The notes beneath the pieces were generated by a model. It ran no database searches. It was not told the DNA's origin and saw only the letters and a list, made by a program, of their open reading frames with translations. The position numbers and the translations under genes are program-made. Shown in pieces: positions 2,651-55,167 of a stretch of DNA of 64,000 nt. This stretch comes from a phage. Where the stretch lies: the sequence record PX393109.1; one strand, written 5' to 3'. Positions within the stretch are counted from its first letter, which is position 1. Every line of letters begins with the position of its first letter.

Positions 2651-2813
2651 GTTACTTATTATAAGTAGTATTGTTGCTCGGGATGCTCCATCAGTTCACT
2701 CGGTAATTGCGGAATTTGAGACTAAAGATCAAGCAGATCGTGCCTACGACAAAATGGTGGAATCTGCCAACCCTCAGTCCTGGGTATCTAACAAAGTAGT
2801 GAAACTTTACTAA
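2644..2813 (+). CDS. hypothetical small protein
   Basis: ATG at 2644 after AGGAGG; ORF track lists a longer alternative-frame start at 2544. Confidence 0.35.
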
Positions 2814-2869
2814 TAGCTGAGTTCTATTAAGGCACCTAACGGCCTAATAGTTGCTCTTCCGTAAAACAG

Positions 2870-3270
2870 ATTCGATAGTCTGGGAAGAGCAGCTATATAC
2901 TCTCATTAAGTAATGCGTATACATAGGGCACGATTAAGTTACGTCTCCGGCTATGGTTGCATTACGAATAGTTAGGTAGTGTCCCTATTCAGATTGTCCG
3001 GAACTGGATAGAGGATGAAGGTATTGTCGAGACCTTAGTGGGGACTGATGCGAACTACACTAAGGTTTATACCCTCTCAACATTCTTAGGGGCATCTACG
3101 TAGTATACCTTGCGTCACGCGTAGGGTGAGCGAGTTAAAGCCCAAAGTGGCTTTAGGGAGCGAATCCCAGGGGGAGGCTCGGGTGGGCAAGGTCAGAGTC
3201 TCCGGAGGAGCTTAGTCTCGTGTACGCGGCGGCTCTGCCAGCCGCCGCTACACTCCAATTGGTTAAATTA
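2870..3270 (+). ncRNA. candidate large structured RNA element, copy A (paralogue of 56070-56490)
   Basis: ~500 bp with no ORF >=60 aa in any frame; GC-rich; perfect hairpins (GCGGCGGCT/AGCCGCCGC, AAAGCC/GGCTTT); shares blocks of sequence with the second element at equal spacing. Confidence 0.4.
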
Positions 3271-3342
3271 GATAAGGGGCCGGTAGTTCCTACGTCCATT
3301 AGTTTAGGAGTTATTATTTGATTATGTTGAGGAACACTATTA

Positions 3343-3576
3343 ATGATCGTAGTTACTGAAGAGTATATTACCTCCCAGTCTAAGGCTGGTGGGAAGGCTG
3401 TTGGAAGAGTAGCAATAGCTAAACTAACCAATATGGGTTATGTTCCTAAGGACACTCCTAAGCCACCAGCACCATGGATATGGGAAAAGGAGAATGGCAG
3501 GATTATGGCTATTACCCAGTATATGGGGCCATTCAGACTCAAGATCGAATACTTAGTAGATCTGGAAGATTCGTAG
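3343..3576 (+). CDS. hypothetical protein
   Basis: 77-aa ORF. Confidence 0.45.
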   Translation: MIVVTEEYITSQSKAGGKAVGRVAIAKLTNMGYVPKDTPKPPAPWIWEKENGRIMAITQYMGPFRLKIEYLVDLEDS

Positions 3577-3577
3577 G

Positions 3578-3616
3578 CCGCTCTTTTTAGGTGCTGAAAG
3601 GCTGTTAAGGTGTCAG
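3578..3616 (+). promoter_or_regulatory. conserved intergenic motif copy 2
   Basis: GCCGCTCTTTTTAGGTGCTGAAAGGCTGTTAAGGTGTCA. Confidence 0.45.
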
Positions 3617-4184: not shown

Positions 4185-4439
4185 ATGTACTTTACTGATA
4201 ATATGATCGTAGGACTGATGATTGCTTATGTCATCGGTGGGATCATCGTTTATCCGATTGCTGCTTATGTTACTGGCAGATTCCGTATTAAGCATGGTGG
4301 CTACACAGTATTGGCTACGGTATTTTGGCCGTTAATCCCTTTCGTGATCGTGGCAGTTATCATAACTAAACTGGCCGAAATAGCTTGCACGAAAGGGTTC
4401 CACTACCTCCGCGATCTCGGTGAGAAACATGCCAATTAA
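4185..4439 (+). CDS. small membrane protein (two predicted TM helices)
   Basis: hydrophobic stretches IVGLMIAYVIGGIIVYPIAAYV and VLATVFWPLIPFVIVAVIITKL; AAGGAATAATT RBS. Confidence 0.5.
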   Translation: MYFTDNMIVGLMIAYVIGGIIVYPIAAYVTGRFRIKHGGYTVLATVFWPLIPFVIVAVIITKLAEIACTKGFHYLRDLGEKHAN

Positions 4440-4998
4440 TTTCAGTATGCAGAGTCTTGAAGACTTTGTACCAGAGCATGGTAAGAGCGTAGTAGTCTTC
4501 TACCACGAGCGATTCTATTCCCGAGTAGAAATGCTACAGATGCAAGTAGAGTTCCACTACCAGATGATAGATGGCGATGGCTGCCCAGTTCCTCAGTGGG
4601 CATGCTATGATAATCGTGACGACATACCGTTCGATAAGCCATTCATCTGGAAAGATAAGCAGGTTAAGTTCCTTACTCTGGACGACTGTATGGAAATACA
4701 TAATCGTCATCCCAAGCACCACTATCGTTACTGGTGGGTTAAGGACTGGTTCCTAACTGGCGGAGGAAATAGCCAGTTAAATAGGGAACAGCTGGCGGAG
4801 ATGTCGTTAGGGATTATGAGTGCCGAACAGTTTAGTGCTGAGCTGGATAAGGGATGTGCTGATCTGGAAGCCAAGCGTATCTTACGTGAATTAACTCGTG
4901 AATCCCGTACTGGATATTGTGAGAAGCATGGCACTCGTCAGCTGGGTAAGGACCTATGTGATGTGTGCCGTATTGAACGTGCATTTATGGAGGGATGA
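4429..4998 (+). CDS. hypothetical protein
   Basis: ORF track 4420..4998 (GTG); first ATG at 4429. Confidence 0.45.
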   Translation: MPINFSMQSLEDFVPEHGKSVVVFYHERFYSRVEMLQMQVEFHYQMIDGDGCPVPQWACYDNRDDIPFDKPFIWKDKQVKFLTLDDCMEIHNRHPKHHYRYWWVKDWFLTGGGNSQLNREQLAEMSLGIMSAEQFSAELDKGCADLEAKRILRELTRESRTGYCEKHGTRQLGKDLCDVCRIERAFMEG

Positions 4999-6296: not shown

Positions 6297-6334
6297 CCGC
6301 CGTTTCTTACCCTCGAAAGGCTGTTAAATTGTTG
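6297..6334 (+). promoter_or_regulatory. conserved intergenic motif copy 3
   Basis: CCGCCGTTTCTTACCCTCGAAAGGCTGTTAAATTGTTG. Confidence 0.45.
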
Positions 6335-7072: not shown

Positions 7073-7385
7073 GCTTTGTCGGGTGGTTAATATACGTACC
7101 AATCCTAACTACGATTTATATGTTGGGAGAGGTACTATATTCGGGAATAAGTGGAGCCATAAAGATTTACCTAACGCTATTAACGTAGGTTCCCGAACAT
7201 TAGCCATCGCGAAATACAGACTATGGTTCCACCAGCAAGTAAAAGATGGCCACATAAGCATCTCCTACTTACGGACTCTTAAGGGTAAGACTTTAGGGTG
7301 CTCCTGCTTACCGTTACCATGTCATGCTCAAGTTATAGCTGACTTCGTTAATTCATTACCTGACGAAGATTCCGCTCTTTCGTAG
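7062..7385 (+). CDS. DUF4326-like protein (CxC...PCH motif)
   Basis: YVGRG...GNKW...LGCSCLPLPCHAQVIADF resembles the DUF4326 signature; family assignment from memory. Confidence 0.4.
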   Translation: MESKLCRVVNIRTNPNYDLYVGRGTIFGNKWSHKDLPNAINVGSRTLAIAKYRLWFHQQVKDGHISISYLRTLKGKTLGCSCLPLPCHAQVIADFVNSLPDEDSALS

Positions 7386-7410
7386 CCTCCAAAGGCTGTT
7401 AAACTGTTGG
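7372..7410 (+). promoter_or_regulatory. conserved intergenic motif copy 4
   Basis: CCGCTCTTTCGTAGCCTCCAAAGGCTGTTAAACTGTTGG; 22 nt before ATG 7424. Confidence 0.5.
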
Positions 7411-16851: not shown

Positions 16852-18306
16852 TTAACTTGCCCAGGTACCCTGAACAGTATCCATCTCCCAGTAACCGGAG
16901 ATAGCACAAACTAAGCGTAACCAGGATCCCTTATCCGAGTTGGAAATAGTGGCTTTCCCATTACGGAAGAGATCTGTACCACCAGTTTTTACTGATACGC
17001 TGTAGTTGGCACCTACAAGAACATCATAGGTCATACCAGGAACAGCGACTGGCAGGGTAACGGTAACAGCAGAAGTGGCACCATCGGTAGTGCAGATAGC
17101 ACCGGTATCAGCTGCGGTAAGAGTTACATTAGCTGTAGACGTGATGATCTTCTTAAGAGCACCAGTCATTACACCATCTACTATCTTGATGGTATCCTTA
17201 CCATTCTGGGTCAGGACTACTGATCCATCGCCTTTATGGGTTACCTTAGAAGTAAGAGTAGGTCCGTGATAGTAGGTATGAATGATATCATAGCCAGTAT
17301 TCACTGCATCGTATCGAAGAATATGATCCTCTGATGCTCTCTTACCGAAGTGGTAATCGACACCTTCAACTATGGTATCTCGGTTCCATGCGTGAGTCTG
17401 GGAAGAGGCTACCACACGATAACGAGATTCAGCTCCGCGAAGAACATGCCAGTCACGGTTAGAGTCATCGCTCATACCCGATTCCCAGATCTTAGTTCCG
17501 CTTACGCTGTAAGATACCTTAGCTCTGGCTAACCCGTTATTACTGTTAAGGTTAAGGTTAGCGTTGGACGCAGACGAGATAATTAAACCATCAGTAGAAT
17601 TACTGATGAATCTCACTGCAGCCGTCCATGAACTACCGTCCCATCCAGACATATCCAGAATCTGGACACCAGGCTTGATGGTTAAATTAGCGAGGGTATA
17701 CTTAACACCAGGGTCGATTATAGCCAGACCAGTGGTGATAGTGGTAAGCATATCCTGAACCTGGCCAGTAGAGTCGGTGAGTTTATCAGGAACAGCACCG
17801 AATTCAGTAGCTCGAAATTCTTTGCTACGACGGACTCTTACCCAACCATTCACTACGTCTTTACTATCAGATGCTATGGAGTCGTTTTCTGTTTTAACTC
17901 TGAACTCACCACCACCAGGGGTACCCTCCCCGAAGTAGCCTTTCACTATCACTCTGTCCCCATCTTTAGGAGTGATAGTTTTCAGATCTTCTACAGAGTT
18001 TACCTGACCAATGTAGCGCCAGGAAGTAGAAGACCCGAACATTGAAATAATGAAGTCTACTGCATTAGTCTGGGCGAAGATCTCGTATCCAGCTTTAAGA
18101 GTAGTTTGTTCGGCATCGGCATACGGAGTTTCACCGTCGGTGGTGTGGGGGATATCCCCCACCCACTTAACCAACACCTTCTTACCATCAGTGCGCACAA
18201 ATCTGAGAATGCAGTGGTTACCGTTTAGATAGATACCAGCCGCATAGTCACCTTTGTACTTAAGGCTGCTTAACTGCAGACTATCTGGCAATTGGGTGGA
18301 CATCAA
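16852..18306 (-). CDS. tailspike/fibre protein
   Basis: N-terminal xWxGDxP adaptor-like motif (LVKWVGDIPHT), then FGAVPDKLTDSTGQVQ beta-helix-entry-like motif. Confidence 0.55.
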   Translation of the reverse strand: MMSTQLPDSLQLSSLKYKGDYAAGIYLNGNHCILRFVRTDGKKVLVKWVGDIPHTTDGETPYADAEQTTLKAGYEIFAQTNAVDFIISMFGSSTSWRYIGQVNSVEDLKTITPKDGDRVIVKGYFGEGTPGGGEFRVKTENDSIASDSKDVVNGWVRVRRSKEFRATEFGAVPDKLTDSTGQVQDMLTTITTGLAIIDPGVKYTLANLTIKPGVQILDMSGWDGSSWTAAVRFISNSTDGLIISSASNANLNLNSNNGLARAKVSYSVSGTKIWESGMSDDSNRDWHVLRGAESRYRVVASSQTHAWNRDTIVEGVDYHFGKRASEDHILRYDAVNTGYDIIHTYYHGPTLTSKVTHKGDGSVVLTQNGKDTIKIVDGVMTGALKKIITSTANVTLTAADTGAICTTDGATSAVTVTLPVAVPGMTYDVLVGANYSVSVKTGGTDLFRNGKATISNSDKGSWLRLVCAISGYWEMDTVQGTWAS

Positions 18307-18327
18307 GAATCTCCTCAGTTTAATCTA

Positions 18328-20949
18328 TTAAACTGTCTTAAAGGCTGGCGTATCTACGGAAGTTAATACTGCGCCATCAGGAACGTTAGACTGAAGTGCT
18401 GGGTACACATCAAAGTAATAATTACCACCATTGACATAACCACTGCGGACGATAGTACCGACGTAATCAGCGCCATCCGCACCACCACCTCCTGCTATTT
18501 TAACCTTACATCCGGCAGTCTTATAATACTGGCCAGTCCAGTTAAGGTTAGTCTTAGAGCGAATAGAGTTAGATCCAGAAGTAGCGGCAGCGACAGTTTC
18601 GTTGGAGTAGAACAGAGCTCCAGGAGCAGTCACAGTAAACATAGTTCCGTCACTAGCAACAATAGTGTCGCCAGCCAGCAGAGCCATGCCATAAGGAGTA
18701 CCGGTCTTGGTATGGTAAATCACACCGTTCTGACGCCATGCTGGAGTACCACGGTAATGAGTCGCGGTAGTGGTCTTCTGAATAGGGAAGTTACAATCAG
18801 AGACCTCCAGAGTATCCACCGTGATGTTCTGGACAGTAACGTTAGCCGCACCGGTATTAGGATCAAGGCATTTCATGTTGGAGATGTTAGCAACCATCCA
18901 CTTGTTACGGCGGTAGTTATCTCGAGCATCACCAGACGTGTATCGGAAGTCGAGAATGATTTTCTCAGCTGACCAGTCCGAGAGACGATACTCGGATGCC
19001 ATACCCTGGAGAGATATGGTGGTAGCTTTGATATTCTTCATCTCGACAGTAGAGTTCAGAGTATCGGTAGTACATACCTCAACATGAACAGTACCAGTGA
19101 TATTTACGTTACGAATACGGATATTACGATGAGCGAAGGTATAGGCATTACTCACTGTACCCCACAGGAAGCGAATCATTTCCTCAGTACCATTAACTGG
19201 GGAGCCGATTACGCCATCCACATCGATATCCTTACAACCGTAGGCGATAAGGCCTCCAGTATCCAGACCTACACCAGTTGACTTATTGGCATCTGGGTAA
19301 ATCTCGATGTCTCGGATAGTGATGTTGCGGCATTTCTCCATATGGATACACTGCTTAGCACCCTTAACCTTAACGTTACTGATTACCACGTCTGACATAT
19401 ACTCGGAATCTGGAGCAGTCAGAGAGTAGTTACCAGTACCAGCCAGACCAATTGCAATACCCCAGTTGGCGTTACCAGTGCTAGTTGCGTCGACATTATC
19501 TACAGTGATGTTATCGATTCTGGTATTGGTATCTGCTACTGCCAGGTTAATCTCAATAGGGTCGCTCTTCATGTCGAAGAACTGCAAGTTCTGCAGCAGA
19601 GTCGCAGTGAGCGGCTTGGAGGATGCAGGACTACCCTGACGGAGGTAACCATAATTACAGCGACGCATAATACCGTTAGTGACGAACAGCTGGCTATTAG
19701 CCGCTAATTGCTGACACAGCAGAGCAGCAGTCGCAGAACAGTCATTAATCTCGAACTGGTCGAGTTTAAAAATACCGTTTATGTGACGAATACCGCATTT
19801 GCTAAGGTTCAGCTTAGTTATGTCAGTATCACCATTAACCAGCAGCTGTGAACTAGCACCGGTACCAACTATGGTTAGGTTCTCGATCACTACACCGGAG
19901 ATATCCACCGATTGGTTAGCGATCTTGTAAGTACCCATACCCATAAGCTTAAGACCATAAGTCTTAGCCAGAGTAACAGCGGAGCGAAGAGCTGCTGTAT
20001 CGTCCGTAGTACCGTCGCCTTTAGCTCGAGCCATTTCTGGGGTGATGTATCGAATACCATCAGCCACCGTGCCACCATATCTCAGATAGACAATAGCAGC
20101 ACCAGTAGTTTCGCCAGCAGTCATGAGCTCTGACTTAAGAGCACCAGAACCTACAGGAATCCACTTACCAGTCCCCTGTTCAGACTGAGATGGCTCCGGA
20201 TCTCCATAATTAACAACTTTAGGAAGAACACCATCCCATTTATAATACTCCCCATTTACTGAGAAGCTTACAGTCTGGACTCGGGTAGTGAGAGTCAGGC
20301 TCTGACCTTCAGACAGATCAGTAAGTTTATAATTAACGAAACCTACTTTTTCTGAGATCTCTCTGGTAAGGCTATCGATGCGATCCTGGGTAACGCTAAG
20401 AGCATCACGAGAGTTCAGCTCGGCAGTCACCAGGACGCCCTTCGACAGCTTAATCTTAGTAAGAGTGATCTTGCGACTAATAACATCGATAGTGTAATCT
20501 TCTACGCGAGTAAGGCGGACACCACCTACGAATAGACGTACGCTGGTAAAGGAATAAGGAATATTAAACTCGAATTCCCCATCCTCCTGTACCTCGTAAC
20601 TCCACTCGATACCGCTCTGTACTCCTCCAGTCCAGTAGGATTCTTCGTAGAAGTTACCAGTAGTGGTAAACGGTACAGGACCAGTCCAGTAGTACAGCAG
20701 ATTATCATATCTGACATACTGGCGGTCGTTCTCGATCACCATTCCGGAGGCATAGTTACCGAGGATATACATAGACTGACCAGCAGTCTGTTGCAACTCG
20801 TTAACGTTGCCTATTGTTTCGGCAAGAGTCTCGTCTAATACTTTCTGCTGATTTTCTAACTCTCGAATATCGAGAGTCTGGTTATCATGCTGATAAGTAT
20901 TAAGAGGAGCTCCGCCTAGTTCGCTAAATAACTTAGAACGACCGCCCAT
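18328..20949 (-). CDS. tailspike with pectate-lyase-like right-handed beta-helix (putative polysaccharide depolymerase)
   Basis: KGDGTTDDTAALRSAV (pectate lyase 3-type motif), repetitive beta-helix-like body, N-terminal YKWDGVLPK adaptor motif. Confidence 0.7.
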   Translation of the reverse strand: MGGRSKLFSELGGAPLNTYQHDNQTLDIRELENQQKVLDETLAETIGNVNELQQTAGQSMYILGNYASGMVIENDRQYVRYDNLLYYWTGPVPFTTTGNFYEESYWTGGVQSGIEWSYEVQEDGEFEFNIPYSFTSVRLFVGGVRLTRVEDYTIDVISRKITLTKIKLSKGVLVTAELNSRDALSVTQDRIDSLTREISEKVGFVNYKLTDLSEGQSLTLTTRVQTVSFSVNGEYYKWDGVLPKVVNYGDPEPSQSEQGTGKWIPVGSGALKSELMTAGETTGAAIVYLRYGGTVADGIRYITPEMARAKGDGTTDDTAALRSAVTLAKTYGLKLMGMGTYKIANQSVDISGVVIENLTIVGTGASSQLLVNGDTDITKLNLSKCGIRHINGIFKLDQFEINDCSATAALLCQQLAANSQLFVTNGIMRRCNYGYLRQGSPASSKPLTATLLQNLQFFDMKSDPIEINLAVADTNTRIDNITVDNVDATSTGNANWGIAIGLAGTGNYSLTAPDSEYMSDVVISNVKVKGAKQCIHMEKCRNITIRDIEIYPDANKSTGVGLDTGGLIAYGCKDIDVDGVIGSPVNGTEEMIRFLWGTVSNAYTFAHRNIRIRNVNITGTVHVEVCTTDTLNSTVEMKNIKATTISLQGMASEYRLSDWSAEKIILDFRYTSGDARDNYRRNKWMVANISNMKCLDPNTGAANVTVQNITVDTLEVSDCNFPIQKTTTATHYRGTPAWRQNGVIYHTKTGTPYGMALLAGDTIVASDGTMFTVTAPGALFYSNETVAAATSGSNSIRSKTNLNWTGQYYKTAGCKVKIAGGGGADGADYVGTIVRSGYVNGGNYYFDVYPALQSNVPDGAVLTSVDTPAFKTV

Positions 20950-52540: not shown

Positions 52541-52584
52541 AACCGCTCTTTTGTAAGGTCCAAAGGCTGTTAAACCGTTGGAGG
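52541..52584 (+). promoter_or_regulatory. conserved intergenic motif copy 5
   Basis: AACCGCTCTTTTGTAAGGTCCAAAGGCTGTTAAACCGTTGGAGG; ends in the RBS of the 52593 gene. Confidence 0.5.
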
Positions 52585-53886: not shown

Positions 53887-53930
53887 AACCGCTCTTTTGT
53901 ACCGTCGAAAGGCTGTTAAAGTGTCGGAGG
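53887..53930 (+). promoter_or_regulatory. conserved intergenic motif copy 6
   Basis: AACCGCTCTTTTGTACCGTCGAAAGGCTGTTAAAGTGTCGGAGG. Confidence 0.5.
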
Positions 53931-54005: not shown

Positions 54006-54548
54006 GTGAATATTTTCCGTACTCACGAAGATGCGTTAGAATGTGCTATGGACCATTGTATGCCAATGCACCAGAATAAAATGATTATCGAATGTGCTCA
54101 GCTGTTGTCCACAGCTCATCATGTTCTGGATGGCGATCAAGCTATCGAGGGTATTTACAAACAGACTCACGTAAATCACCCATCAGCACGCTGGGTCCGT
54201 GAATCTTCCGGTAACTACAACTTCGTTAAAGAGCTGGCTAACTATCTGTGTATCCTGTTCTATGAACGTACCGGTCGTATGCATGCCACAGATATTATTC
54301 TGTCGCGACTCAGCAAACTGCCTAAGAACTTGAAGGTCGGTCCGGAGACTGACATGACACCTTATGCGTGTGTGGCAGGTGCTCCTGGCGAAACAGTTTA
54401 CGAGAAGTATCGTAACTACCTGAACGATAAATACTATATCTGGGAGAAAGAGGGTCGTACCATTACTTTCTACCGCACTCCCGAATGGTATAAACCCGCT
54501 CTTTTTACAGTTCCAAAGGCTGTTAAAGTGTCTGAGGCGAGCGTCTAA
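54006..54548 (+). CDS. hypothetical protein
   Basis: 180-aa ORF; its last ~15 codons read through a copy of the conserved intergenic motif. Confidence 0.5.
   Translation: MNIFRTHEDALECAMDHCMPMHQNKMIIECAQLLSTAHHVLDGDQAIEGIYKQTHVNHPSARWVRESSGNYNFVKELANYLCILFYERTGRMHATDIILSRLSKLPKNLKVGPETDMTPYACVAGAPGETVYEKYRNYLNDKYYIWEKEGRTITFYRTPEWYKPALFTVPKAVKVSEASV
54495..54537 (+). promoter_or_regulatory. conserved intergenic motif copy 7 (inside 3' end of a CDS)
   Basis: CCCGCTCTTTTTACAGTTCCAAAGGCTGTTAAAGTGTCTGAGG. Confidence 0.45.
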
Positions 54549-54552
54549 TTAC

Positions 54553-54595
54553 GCCGCTCTTTTGTACGGTCGAAAGGCTGTTAAAGTGTTCGAAG
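54553..54595 (+). promoter_or_regulatory. conserved intergenic motif copy 8
   Basis: GCCGCTCTTTTGTACGGTCGAAAGGCTGTTAAAGTGTTCGAAG. Confidence 0.5.
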
Positions 54596-54682
54596 TGCCA
54601 ATTCCGGCTTATCTAACTAAGAAGGTATATCGTATGTAACGGTTAATCACTTAGAGAAGAAGATAAAACTTAGGAATCGTTT

Positions 54683-54726
54683 CGCTCCCTATTTCCCATC
54701 ATCACAGTGCTCGGTGATAGGGAGCG
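54683..54726 (+). promoter_or_regulatory. long imperfect hairpin
   Basis: CGCTCCCTAT...ATAGGGAGCG 10-bp outer stem with inner ATCAC/GTGAT stem. Confidence 0.4.
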
Positions 54727-54735
54727 GGCAACTTA

Positions 54736-54773
54736 ACACTCTTTTGATGACTCGAAAGGCTGTTAAATTGTCA
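54736..54773 (+). promoter_or_regulatory. conserved intergenic motif copy 9
   Basis: ACACTCTTTTGATGACTCGAAAGGCTGTTAAATTGTCA; a terminator lies ~25 nt downstream. Confidence 0.45.
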
Positions 54774-54797
54774 TAAGTTGTTCATGGGATCCGTGGG

Positions 54798-54827
54798 ACC
54801 GACTGCTAGCGTACCAGTCGGTTTTTC
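54798..54827 (+). terminator. rho-independent terminator
   Basis: ACCGACTG/CAGTCGGT stem, 9-nt loop, followed by TTTTT. Confidence 0.65.
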
Positions 54828-55167
54828 GGTGGTCTGCAGTGCTTGAGTCTGTAAGGTATGAGTGGGACTCAAATTAAAAATAAACTAAACCGTATCAGCT
54901 GTCGGGACTCCTTACCCAGAGACAGTCGTATCCGAGGCCATACGAGAATGGCAAAGTAGGAAGCTATATGGGACTATCAATCCCGGATTTGGCGTATGGC
55001 TCTTCCTACCTCCTCAGGACAGGTTGACTGAGGGCTACAAGCCTATGTGATACCAGCCAATGGCGTTACGCGGTTGGCGAGATCGGCTTAATCGCCGATT
55101 GGTAATCTGGCGCGACGAACGGCGTCCCTGTAACAGTAAGCAGGATAATATTTCTCAGGAGAGTACG

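Follow-up and report, generated by a model that had tools for sequence, protein, structure and literature searches.

The described systems that come closest to the locus analyzed here are the large phage RNAs GOLLD and ROOL, which are about 580-800 nt in length; the antitermination RNAs, namely, HK022 put, which consists of two plain stem-loops of about 70 nt, and lambda nut, which combines boxA with a 15-nt hairpin; the pseudoknotted riboswitches preQ1-II and SAM-II along with the leader pseudoknot of T4 gene 32; and the RNase III signals of the T7 early region, which are single hairpins of about 60 nt. To our knowledge, phages that combine hypermodified DNA with multisubunit RNA polymerases of their own are difficult to sequence, and hardly any work has addressed their RNAs.

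Here we analyze a 64,000-nt stretch of phage DNA (sequence record PX393109.1; hereafter, the window) that contains two diverged copies of a sequence element, denoted A and B. Judging from sequence comparison and predicted folds, the two copies in all likelihood represent a functional structured RNA of a new phage family, which no described family explains. The preliminary description of this DNA had proposed an undescribed functional RNA with a conserved structure, and this proposal is now supported and extended by the absence of a match in Rfam, by compensatory changes in the core, and by homologues found in a syntenic tRNA island of Acinetobacter phages.

Genomic setting of the two copies

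The closest relatives of the window are the Escherichia phages vB_EcoM_IME392 (hereafter IME392) and EP_H11, and in a blastn search of 50,697 phage records, the region was matched by these two only. The window phage is thus a member of a rare lineage that also includes IME392 and EP_H11 and that has been placed among the 'RP13-like' phages with hypermodified thymidine (PMC12686479). The genes at 1-11 kb and 52.5-64 kb of the window are located on the + strand and are separated by a minus-strand structural block; the beta and beta' subunits of RNA polymerase are annotated in the IME392 record.

Copy A occupies an ORF-free interval on the + strand (2814-3342) that is flanked by a 56-aa ORF (2643-2813) and a 77-aa ORF (3343-3576), and is 98-99% identical to its counterparts in IME392 and EP_H11. 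Copy B is located in an interval without a recognizable gene (55839-56632), 3' of the genes for tRNA-Arg(tct) and tRNA-Met(cat) and 5' of a 263-aa ORF (56633-57424); the ORF-free segment that extends on the + strand from a promoter motif to this ORF (56005-56632) lies 170 nt downstream of tRNA-Met and is 94% identical to IME392 and EP_H11. In these two genomes, no CDS is annotated over copy A, and at most one call of 37 codons (in EP_H11) over copy B. The distance from the element to the downstream ORF is always 90-170 nt, and there are two copies in the E. coli phages vs one in the Acinetobacter phages discussed below.

The surroundings of copy B have features of their own. The tRNA region at 55290-55890 aligns poorly to IME392 and EP_H11, with dozens of differences per 100 nt, and copy B, which adjoins it, is still 94% identical, so that the tRNA island of the window appears to be a hotspot of turnover. 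Within this region, a 67-aa ORF (55360-55563) shows a sub-threshold match to the DnaJ-type CxxCxGxG zinc finger (E 0.0017; 19 bits vs a cut-off of 32.7), and its 3' end overlaps the start of tRNA-Arg (55541).

The element had been described as GC-rich, which holds for the two cores (A, 3106-3253; B, 56313-56461), with G+C of 63-64% vs the window mean of 45%, whereas over the full 400-nt spans, G+C is only 50-54%. Among all 150-nt windows of the 64 kb, the cores rank highest in G+C (top 0.04%). A paralogue 53 kb away had also been claimed, and it is real: a low-stringency blastn search of the whole window with copy A yields a single significant match, between 3111-3186 and 56317-56389 (81.6% identity over 76 nt, E 1e-12), and the 21-mer TAAAGCCCRAAGTGGCTTTAG around the AAAGCC hairpin occurs exactly twice in the window, compared with no occurrences in 100 shuffles. 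The demonstrable homology of A and B is nevertheless limited to about 110 nt rather than the approximately 400 nt originally envisaged. Among the short blocks that had been listed as recurring in both copies, neither of the outer ones reaches significance: the 5' block (TCTGGGAAGAGC vs TCTGGGAGGAGT) is borderline (p about 0.065 in position-restricted shuffles), and the pair GATAAGG/GATAAAGG consists of common words, with 10 and 3 copies in the window, and is not kept in copy B of IME392, where the matching stretch is replaced. Both hairpins that had been pointed out in copy A exist, AAAGCC-CAAAGT-GGCTTT at 3137-3154 and the GC-rich GCGGCGGCT-CTGCC-AGCCGCCGC at 3226-3248, neither of them more than 2 nt from where it had been placed.

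Transcription context

A 36-nt motif with the consensus CCGCTCTTTTGTACGGTCGAAAGGCTGTTAAAnTGT is present in the window in 13 copies, all on the + strand (2182-2218, 3579-3613, 6298-6332, 7373-7407, 52544-52578, 53890-53924, 54497-54531, 54555-54589, 54737-54771, 55969-56003, 57434-57468, 58424-58458 and 63631-63665). In most cases, a start codon follows 20-45 nt after the end of the motif. With a 3' part similar to an extended -10 element, the motif is probably the early/middle promoter of the phage. The 5' half of the motif resembles boxA (CGCUCUUU), and the boxA likeness of CGCUCUUUU in the motif was judged to be a coincidence or untestable. A related motif, GCTGTTTAAAGTGT, occurs in the Acinetobacter phage Ab1-TPeters.

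One of the 13 copies (55969-56003, +; CGCTCTTTT..GAAAGGCTGTTAAAtTG) directly precedes copy B, so that transcription would start at about 56005 and yield a leader or an RNA of about 625 nt, compared with leaders of about 20 nt in other genes. The orientation of this motif implies that the RNA is read from the + strand. No promoter motif is located nearer to copy A than 2199, so that A would be transcribed within the operon. Neither element contains a sigma-70-like promoter on the + strand, nor did a scan of this strand detect a terminator within either of them. Half-copies of the 5' box of the promoter motif (TTGCTCTTCCG at 2851-2861 and CCGCTCTTTCG at 56499-56509) flank the elements and lack the GAAAGGCTGTTAAA half.

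In the tRNA island, two further ORF-poor stretches lie behind promoter motifs, one of about 150 nt (54590-54736) that contains the hairpin CGCTCCCTAT...ATAGGGAGCG and one of about 390 nt (54775-55168) without an Rfam hit; these stretches may be additional non-coding RNAs.

Predicted structure of copies A and B

Both copies can be folded on the + strand. Just 5' of the core, each contains a variable domain (A, 2976-3099; B, 56226-56304), with helices taken from the minimum free energy (MFE) fold and closed by the helix Px (…GUCCCU…/…AGGGG…), which is formed by UGUCCCUA (2980-2987) and UAGGGGCA (3087-3094) in A, and by AGUCCCUGG (56229-56237) and CCAGGGGACU (56292-56301) in B; between the copies, one A-U to G-C exchange in Px is seen in the sequence.

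The predicted core of copy A (3107-3193) consists of the helix P1a (ACCUUGC 3107-3113/GCAAGGU 3187-3193), the helix P1b (UCAC 3115-3118/GUGG 3183-3186), the strand J1 (GCGUA, 3119-3123), the hairpin P2 (3124-3168, with an apical hairpin at 3136-3155) and the strand J2 (AGGGGGAGGCUCGGGUGG, 3169-3186). In copy B, the core (56313-56398) includes P1a ((C)GCCUGCG 56313-56320/CGCAGGC(G) 56391-56398), J1 (56321-56329), P2 (56330-56371, apical hairpin at 56341-56360) and J2 (AGGGGUAGGCUCGGGUGGU, 56372-56390). In P1a, the copies are distinguished by the replacement of A-U by G-C and by one entire base pair that is lost, and the eighth P1 pair of copy B is C-G in the window, U.G in IME392 and U-A in EP_H11. 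P2 appears as a three-segment stem in which GGG/CCC of A is replaced by GCA/UGC in B, and GC/GC by AC/GU; this second segment is flanked by two apparent tandem G.A pairs (in A, around GC/GC) and the stem is topped by the invariant apical hairpin.

Downstream of P2, a G-run can pair with a C-rich strand located beyond the return strand of P1, forming P5, which crosses P1 (in A, 3171-3203, with 3171-3177 paired to 3197-3203; in B, 56374-56405, with GGGUAGG 56374-56380 paired to CUCAUCC 56399-56405, in six of the seven positions). In IME392 and EP_H11, the substitution G3198C adds one pair in the P5 register of copy A. The short hairpin P3 (CUCC-GGA-GGAG at 3200-3210 in A; AUCC-GGUA-GGAU at 56402-56413 in B) changes between the copies from CUCC/GGAG to AUCC/GGAU, that is, a C-G pair becomes A-U, and the single nucleotide involved (C in A, A in B) finds a matching partner in both P5 and P3. 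Because the 5' strand of P3 is the 3' strand of P5, the two helices are mutually exclusive.

In both copies, the core is followed by a very stable G+C-rich hairpin, P4, of 14 bp in A (3220-3253) and 15 bp in B (56420-56461). Covariation of the arms of this hairpin had been put forward as the sign of selection on RNA structure; the two hairpins are, however, unrelated in sequence and hence are analogous rather than a set of covarying columns, and compensatory change is found instead in the core helices. The P4 loop of A (3235-3239) reads CTGCC in the window, CCGCC in IME392 and GGCAG in EP_H11 (about 4436-4440); the last is the exact reverse complement of the window sequence, which suggests inversion of the hairpin loop by template switching. 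RNAalifold run on the raw MAFFT alignment produced a scattered J1/J2 helix full of single-base bulges, which was replaced by the P1/P5 model.

Homologues in Acinetobacter phages

Distant relatives of the window phage were identified by tblastn with the helicase, and the helicases share about 35% identity. The Acinetobacter phage Ab1-TPeters is syntenic with the window and has the tRNA-Arg(tct)/tRNA-Met(cat) pair in common with it. In Ab1-TPeters, this pair lies in a 3-kb stretch where only tiny ORFs, on both strands, have been annotated. The best match to J2 in the whole Ab1-TPeters genome (CAAGGGGAGTGCTCGGGATGG, 19995-20016) scores 25, compared with the maximum of 24 in 60 shuffled genomes. 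It belongs to a 390-nt ORF-free stretch that has the same orientation, is separated from tRNA-Met by about 1.1 kb on the 3' side, immediately precedes an ORF and folds with z = -3.4. A blastn search with this stretch detects one further phage, vB_AbaM_3098 (PV081573), with 73% identity over about 170 nt, and the J2 strand of the latter (GGGTAGGCTCGGG) is identical to that of copy B. The proteins encoded beside the two Acinetobacter elements are 44-49% identical and their genes are undetected at the DNA level. Because blastn detects part of the RNA region but not its flanks, part of the non-coding stretch is the best-conserved DNA of the neighborhood. In the reliably aligned part of the Acinetobacter 5' domain, there are about 13 compensatory pairs. 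An Rfam search of the Acinetobacter element loci produced no family match, ROOL included.

The RNA islands of these phages contain other sequences of note. A 157-nt non-coding block just 5' of tRNA-Met (Ab1-TPeters 18702-18858; vB_AbaM_3098 1673-1829) is 86.6% identical, far more than the flanking proteins, and could represent either a further conserved RNA or part of a longer tRNA precursor. In vB_AbaM_3098 (PV081573), positions 277-493 encode a genuine permuted two-piece tmRNA (RF04321, 108 bits vs the gathering score of 47), with the tag peptide ANDSTFGTRALAA according to ARAGORN; this is a separate gene of the same RNA island, 2 kb upstream of the element, and the record contains hypothetical-protein CDS calls over this stretch and no annotated tmRNA. 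Numerous 'hypothetical proteins' of 30-70 codons are annotated on both strands of Ab1-TPeters 17000-20200 and vB_AbaM_3098 300-2800; these calls are most likely spurious and overlie non-coding RNA. The sequence UCCGGAAGGA in Ab1-TPeters resembles the apical loop of SRP RNA, a likeness that was judged to be coincidental or untestable.

A proposed common fold

A predicted common fold, with a long-range helix P1, a variable hairpin P2, and P5 crossing P1, is supported by the comparison of four lineages, A, B, Ab1-TPeters and vB_AbaM_3098, two of which are paralogues from one genome. Because the structure guided the manual alignments, the covariation counts run too high and provide support rather than a significance test of R-scape grade: in the alignment of the four lineages, 91% of the cells are paired vs 30-49% in slid controls, and 13 pairs show double changes, a count reached by none of the 500 shuffles, and in the hand-curated alignment of the phage group (A 3106-3216, B 56313-56419 and the orthologues from IME392 and EP_H11, with N as the gap placeholder), 97.5% of the cells are paired vs 24-46% with slid 3' partners, and six pairs are altered on both sides.

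P1b is UCAC/GUGG in A, GCCAU/AUGGC in Ab1-TPeters, and GCCAAU/AUUGGC in vB_AbaM_3098, where a whole base pair is gained, and it is formed in B only in a shifted register; the strand AUUGG of vB_AbaM_3098 can pair with either an upstream or a downstream CCAAU. The motif GCGU(A/G) is common to all four lineages, the P2 hairpin is present in each of them with variable length and sequence, and in all of them the strand GGGnAG(n)G is followed by the invariant CUCGG; the Acinetobacter homologue keeps GCGU and GGGnAG(n)GCUCGGG. P5 is formed by the seven bases before CUC and the downstream C-rich strand, and the pair at position -4 is G-C, U-A, A-U and U-A by lineage. In the window copies, there are 0-5 nt between the return strands of P1 and P5, and this short gap, together with the strand shared by P5 and P3, means that the helices may be alternatives rather than parts of one pseudoknot. 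Several of the conserved pairs are G.U, which would be A.C on the opposite strand, so that the folding strand is the + strand.

Known RNA families and coding potential

Rfam 15 was searched with covariance models, a check that the preliminary description had suggested. The gathering score served as the threshold for the whole window, and a cut-off of E ≤10 under relaxed filters was used for 2700-3450 and 55840-56700. At the gathering score, the window yields just the two tRNAs, and at E ≤10, the two regions show only snoRNA/sRNA-type noise, with no family match. To the extent that their models can detect them, this rules out GOLLD, ROOL, group I and II introns, tmRNA, RNase P, riboswitches and the known small ribozymes. 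The initially perceived resemblance to GOLLD, ROOL or a degenerate intron is not supported: neither GOLLD (RF01998) nor ROOL (RF03087) matches the whole window at the gathering score or either region at E ≤10, the same holds at E ≤10 for Intron_gpI and for the Domain V and D1-D4 models of group II introns, and there are no exons to join. The context excludes an intron as well because the flanking ORFs are complete and copy B is preceded by a tRNA and a promoter motif. The ORF upstream of A ends with TAA at 2811-2813, the ORF that follows starts from an ATG with a GAGG ribosome-binding site of its own, and tRNA-Met before B is complete. A tmRNA or a tRNA-like element was rejected as well: ARAGORN finds only two tRNAs in the window, and there is no tmRNA hit in 54400-56700.

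P4 is not an intrinsic terminator because it is followed by UCCAAUUGG in A and by CUCUACUUUG in B rather than by a U tract. With regard to an expression platform, there is no hairpin-plus-U-tract terminator, and the mutually exclusive pairings P5 and P3 exist. The layout of the put and nut antitermination RNAs, with two stem-loops (put) or boxA plus the boxB hairpin (nut) close behind early promoters, differs from that of the core, a long-range helix that encloses a hairpin plus a crossing helix, and about 900 nt lie between copy A and the nearest promoter motif. The ORFs downstream of the element (77 aa and 263 aa in the window, 131 aa in the Acinetobacter phages) show no similarity to one another and no family hits, so that the idea of related downstream genes, of the kind that accompany a riboswitch aptamer, was rejected.

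The region had been thought to lack any ORF of at least 60 aa; a 92-aa ORF on the minus strand (3153-3431, TTG start) does overlap it but no gene is annotated there, and this ORF, which has no family hit, is probably spurious. Five short ORFs (three within B and two overlapping A) have no match in PHROG, and the ORFs of the region have no PHROG or Pfam hits. A coding sequence shared by A and B was rejected given that 1- and 2-nt indels inside the cores leave no reading frame in common and that the ORFs differ between the copies.

Broad searches disclosed no homologues beyond those described above. A blastn search of phages with the core alone retrieves only IME392 and EP_H11. Exact-pattern searches of viral contigs returned three hits for CAGGGGNAGGCTCGGGTGG, all in Gly-rich coding DNA, and none for TAAAGCCCNAAGTGGCTTTAG or for an Acinetobacter-type pattern; a two-gap pattern in metagenomes produced 20 hits, all by chance; a scan of E. 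coli genomes yielded no match; and protein-anchored searches with the neighboring ORFs led to nothing beyond EP_H11. A covariance model of the window-type core finds A and B only. A minimal-core model, built from trimmed pseudo-sequences, recovers the Acinetobacter copies but scores A and B poorly, and has no match in RP13 (1-100 kb) or Carin-5 (100,001-150,000). It is possible that the family is limited to a few genera or that other members have diverged beyond detection.

Possible functions

The composite explanation that we favor, with modest confidence, is that A and B are paralogues of a new RNA family, read from the + strand as parts of early/middle transcripts, preferably as a cis-acting switch. 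The individual functional readings can be ranked, with a cis-acting switch first and a stand-alone stable RNA almost as likely, followed by a polymerase or RNase signal, a ribozyme, and a non-RNA explanation.

The assignment as a conformational switch that acts in cis within early/middle transcripts is tentative. Under this model, the conserved core of about 100 nt would consist of P1 enclosing the unpaired GCGUA and the long irregular hairpin P2; the G-rich strand GGGnAGG would come next, then the invariant CUCGG, and finally the strand that completes P1, with variable domains of 100-250 nt on the 5' side. The G-rich strand would pair with the C-rich strand further downstream, and the resulting P5 would cross P1, forming either a pseudoknot or a fold that competes with it. 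Alternatively, in the window copies, this C-rich strand could pair with a second G-rich strand (P3), with the stable P4 to follow. A ligand, a protein or the transcribing polymerase would determine which of the two G-rich partners the C-rich strand adopts, and the outcome would govern how the ORF located 90-170 nt further on is read through, processed or translated. Three features speak against a leader of the switch type: the downstream ORFs bear no relation to each other, an uncommon situation for a riboswitch-type leader, the start codons are far away, and no canonical terminator follows the core.

The unrelated downstream genes of the different lineages count in favor of a doubtful but closely competing possibility, namely, that the element is a stand-alone stable non-coding RNA that would be cut from the transcript and act in trans, as a scaffold, a decoy or in a translation-related role, within a 'stable RNA island'. 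Copy B, with its own promoter motif, belongs to a 2-kb ORF-poor island together with tRNA-Arg and tRNA-Met, and the Acinetobacter homologues are located in similar islands, with the bona fide permuted tmRNA in that of vB_AbaM_3098. The size of 300-450 nt and the variable peripheral domains also fit. Many stable RNAs pair their 5' and 3' ends, and so do the MFE folds of B and Ab1-TPeters. However, copy A and both Acinetobacter copies lie between ORFs of operons and lack a dedicated promoter motif, neither processing sites nor terminators are recognizable, and the closing helices are not conserved between A and B.

Compared with the switch and the stable RNA, a signal for transcription or processing appears unlikely. 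Such a signal could be a read-through RNA that modifies the polymerase, by analogy with nut and put of lambdoid phages, or an RNase III or RNase E site that separates cistrons, as known from the T7 early region. The presence of two copies, in the sense orientation, in different + strand transcription units of one genome would be compatible with this function, as would the shape of P2, a long irregular hairpin with symmetric internal loops, the strength of the P4 hairpin and the annotation of a multisubunit RNA polymerase encoded by the phage itself; we know of no such read-through or processing signals for this polymerase. With at least 13 promoter motifs in the window vs two copies of the element, and a single copy in the Acinetobacter phages, the element is not present once per operon, and its invariant unpaired nucleotides and crossing helices are more elaborate than the known nut, put and RNase III sites.

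Small ribozymes are abundant in phage genomes, and a new intercistronic self-cleaving ribozyme would be compatible with a compact, possibly pseudoknotted core in which the unpaired GCGU and CUCGG are invariant between phages with about 35% helicase identity; the failure of all known ribozyme models to match, and the lack of any hint of a cleavage site in the sequence, make this reading improbable. The least probable explanation is that the region does not function as RNA, but rather is a DNA-level site (an origin, as replication origins of some phages are promoter-plus-non-coding modules, or a signal for recombination or packaging), a duplication that is decaying, or a group of small ORFs, such as those at 3220-3321 (+), 3153-3431 (-) and 56352-56510 (+), given that the compensatory and G.U-containing pairs fit the + strand only, indels break any shared frame, the ORFs differ between the copies and have no family hits, and the sequence is kept across genera in which the neighboring proteins fall below 50% identity.

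Beyond the cis-acting switch that we prefer, it can be speculated, with little confidence, that a new ligand-sensing or catalytic class of RNA has the core (GCGU ... GGGnAGG-CUCGG, with P1 and P5 crossing) as its active center, or that this core is a recognition RNA for the multisubunit RNA polymerase of the phage; in either case, it would be specific to the little-studied RP13-like phages with hypermodified thymidine.

Comparison with known systems

The structured RNA is retained between E. coli and Acinetobacter phages despite protein identity of 30-50%, and this conservation, along with the dedicated island shared with tRNAs (and with tmRNA in one relative), suggests an RNA function that is under strong selection in this lineage. 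The core of about 100 nt in two copies is a small, concrete target for experiment. A genuine switch, ribozyme or polymerase-binding RNA would add a new class, and even if the element is only a lineage-specific leader, it provides useful annotation of regions that are left blank or filled with spurious tiny ORFs. Overall, we regard the element as a candidate for a new family of structured phage RNAs.

Like GOLLD and ROOL, the element is phage-encoded, several hundred nucleotides long and multi-domain, and adjoins tRNA genes. Unlike these RNAs, it has no Rfam match at E ≤10, is shorter (300-450 nt), has a single core of about 100 nt as its conserved part, and is found in phages of Gammaproteobacteria with hypermodified DNA. 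With the T7 early-region RNase III signals, it shares the repeated, intercistronic, irregular hairpins with internal loops in an early operon, to which the element adds conserved junctions, a long-range helix and large flanking domains.

The possibly pseudoknotted core, with invariant unpaired nucleotides and located 5' of an ORF, is reminiscent of preQ1-II, SAM-II and the T4 gene 32 leader pseudoknot, and so are the alternative pairings and an A/U-rich stretch before the start codon. The element departs from these pseudoknots in that it matches no model, is followed by genes that are unrelated between the lineages, lies 90-170 nt from the start codon, and has neither a terminator nor sequestering of the start site tied to its core. 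The similarity to HK022 put and lambda nut lies in the two diverged paralogous copies on the sense strand of early transcription units and in a structure that is more conserved than the sequence. The element differs from both in that its predicted core contains crossing helices, its variable domains are long, it does not occur once per operon, and it is present in a single copy in the relatives.
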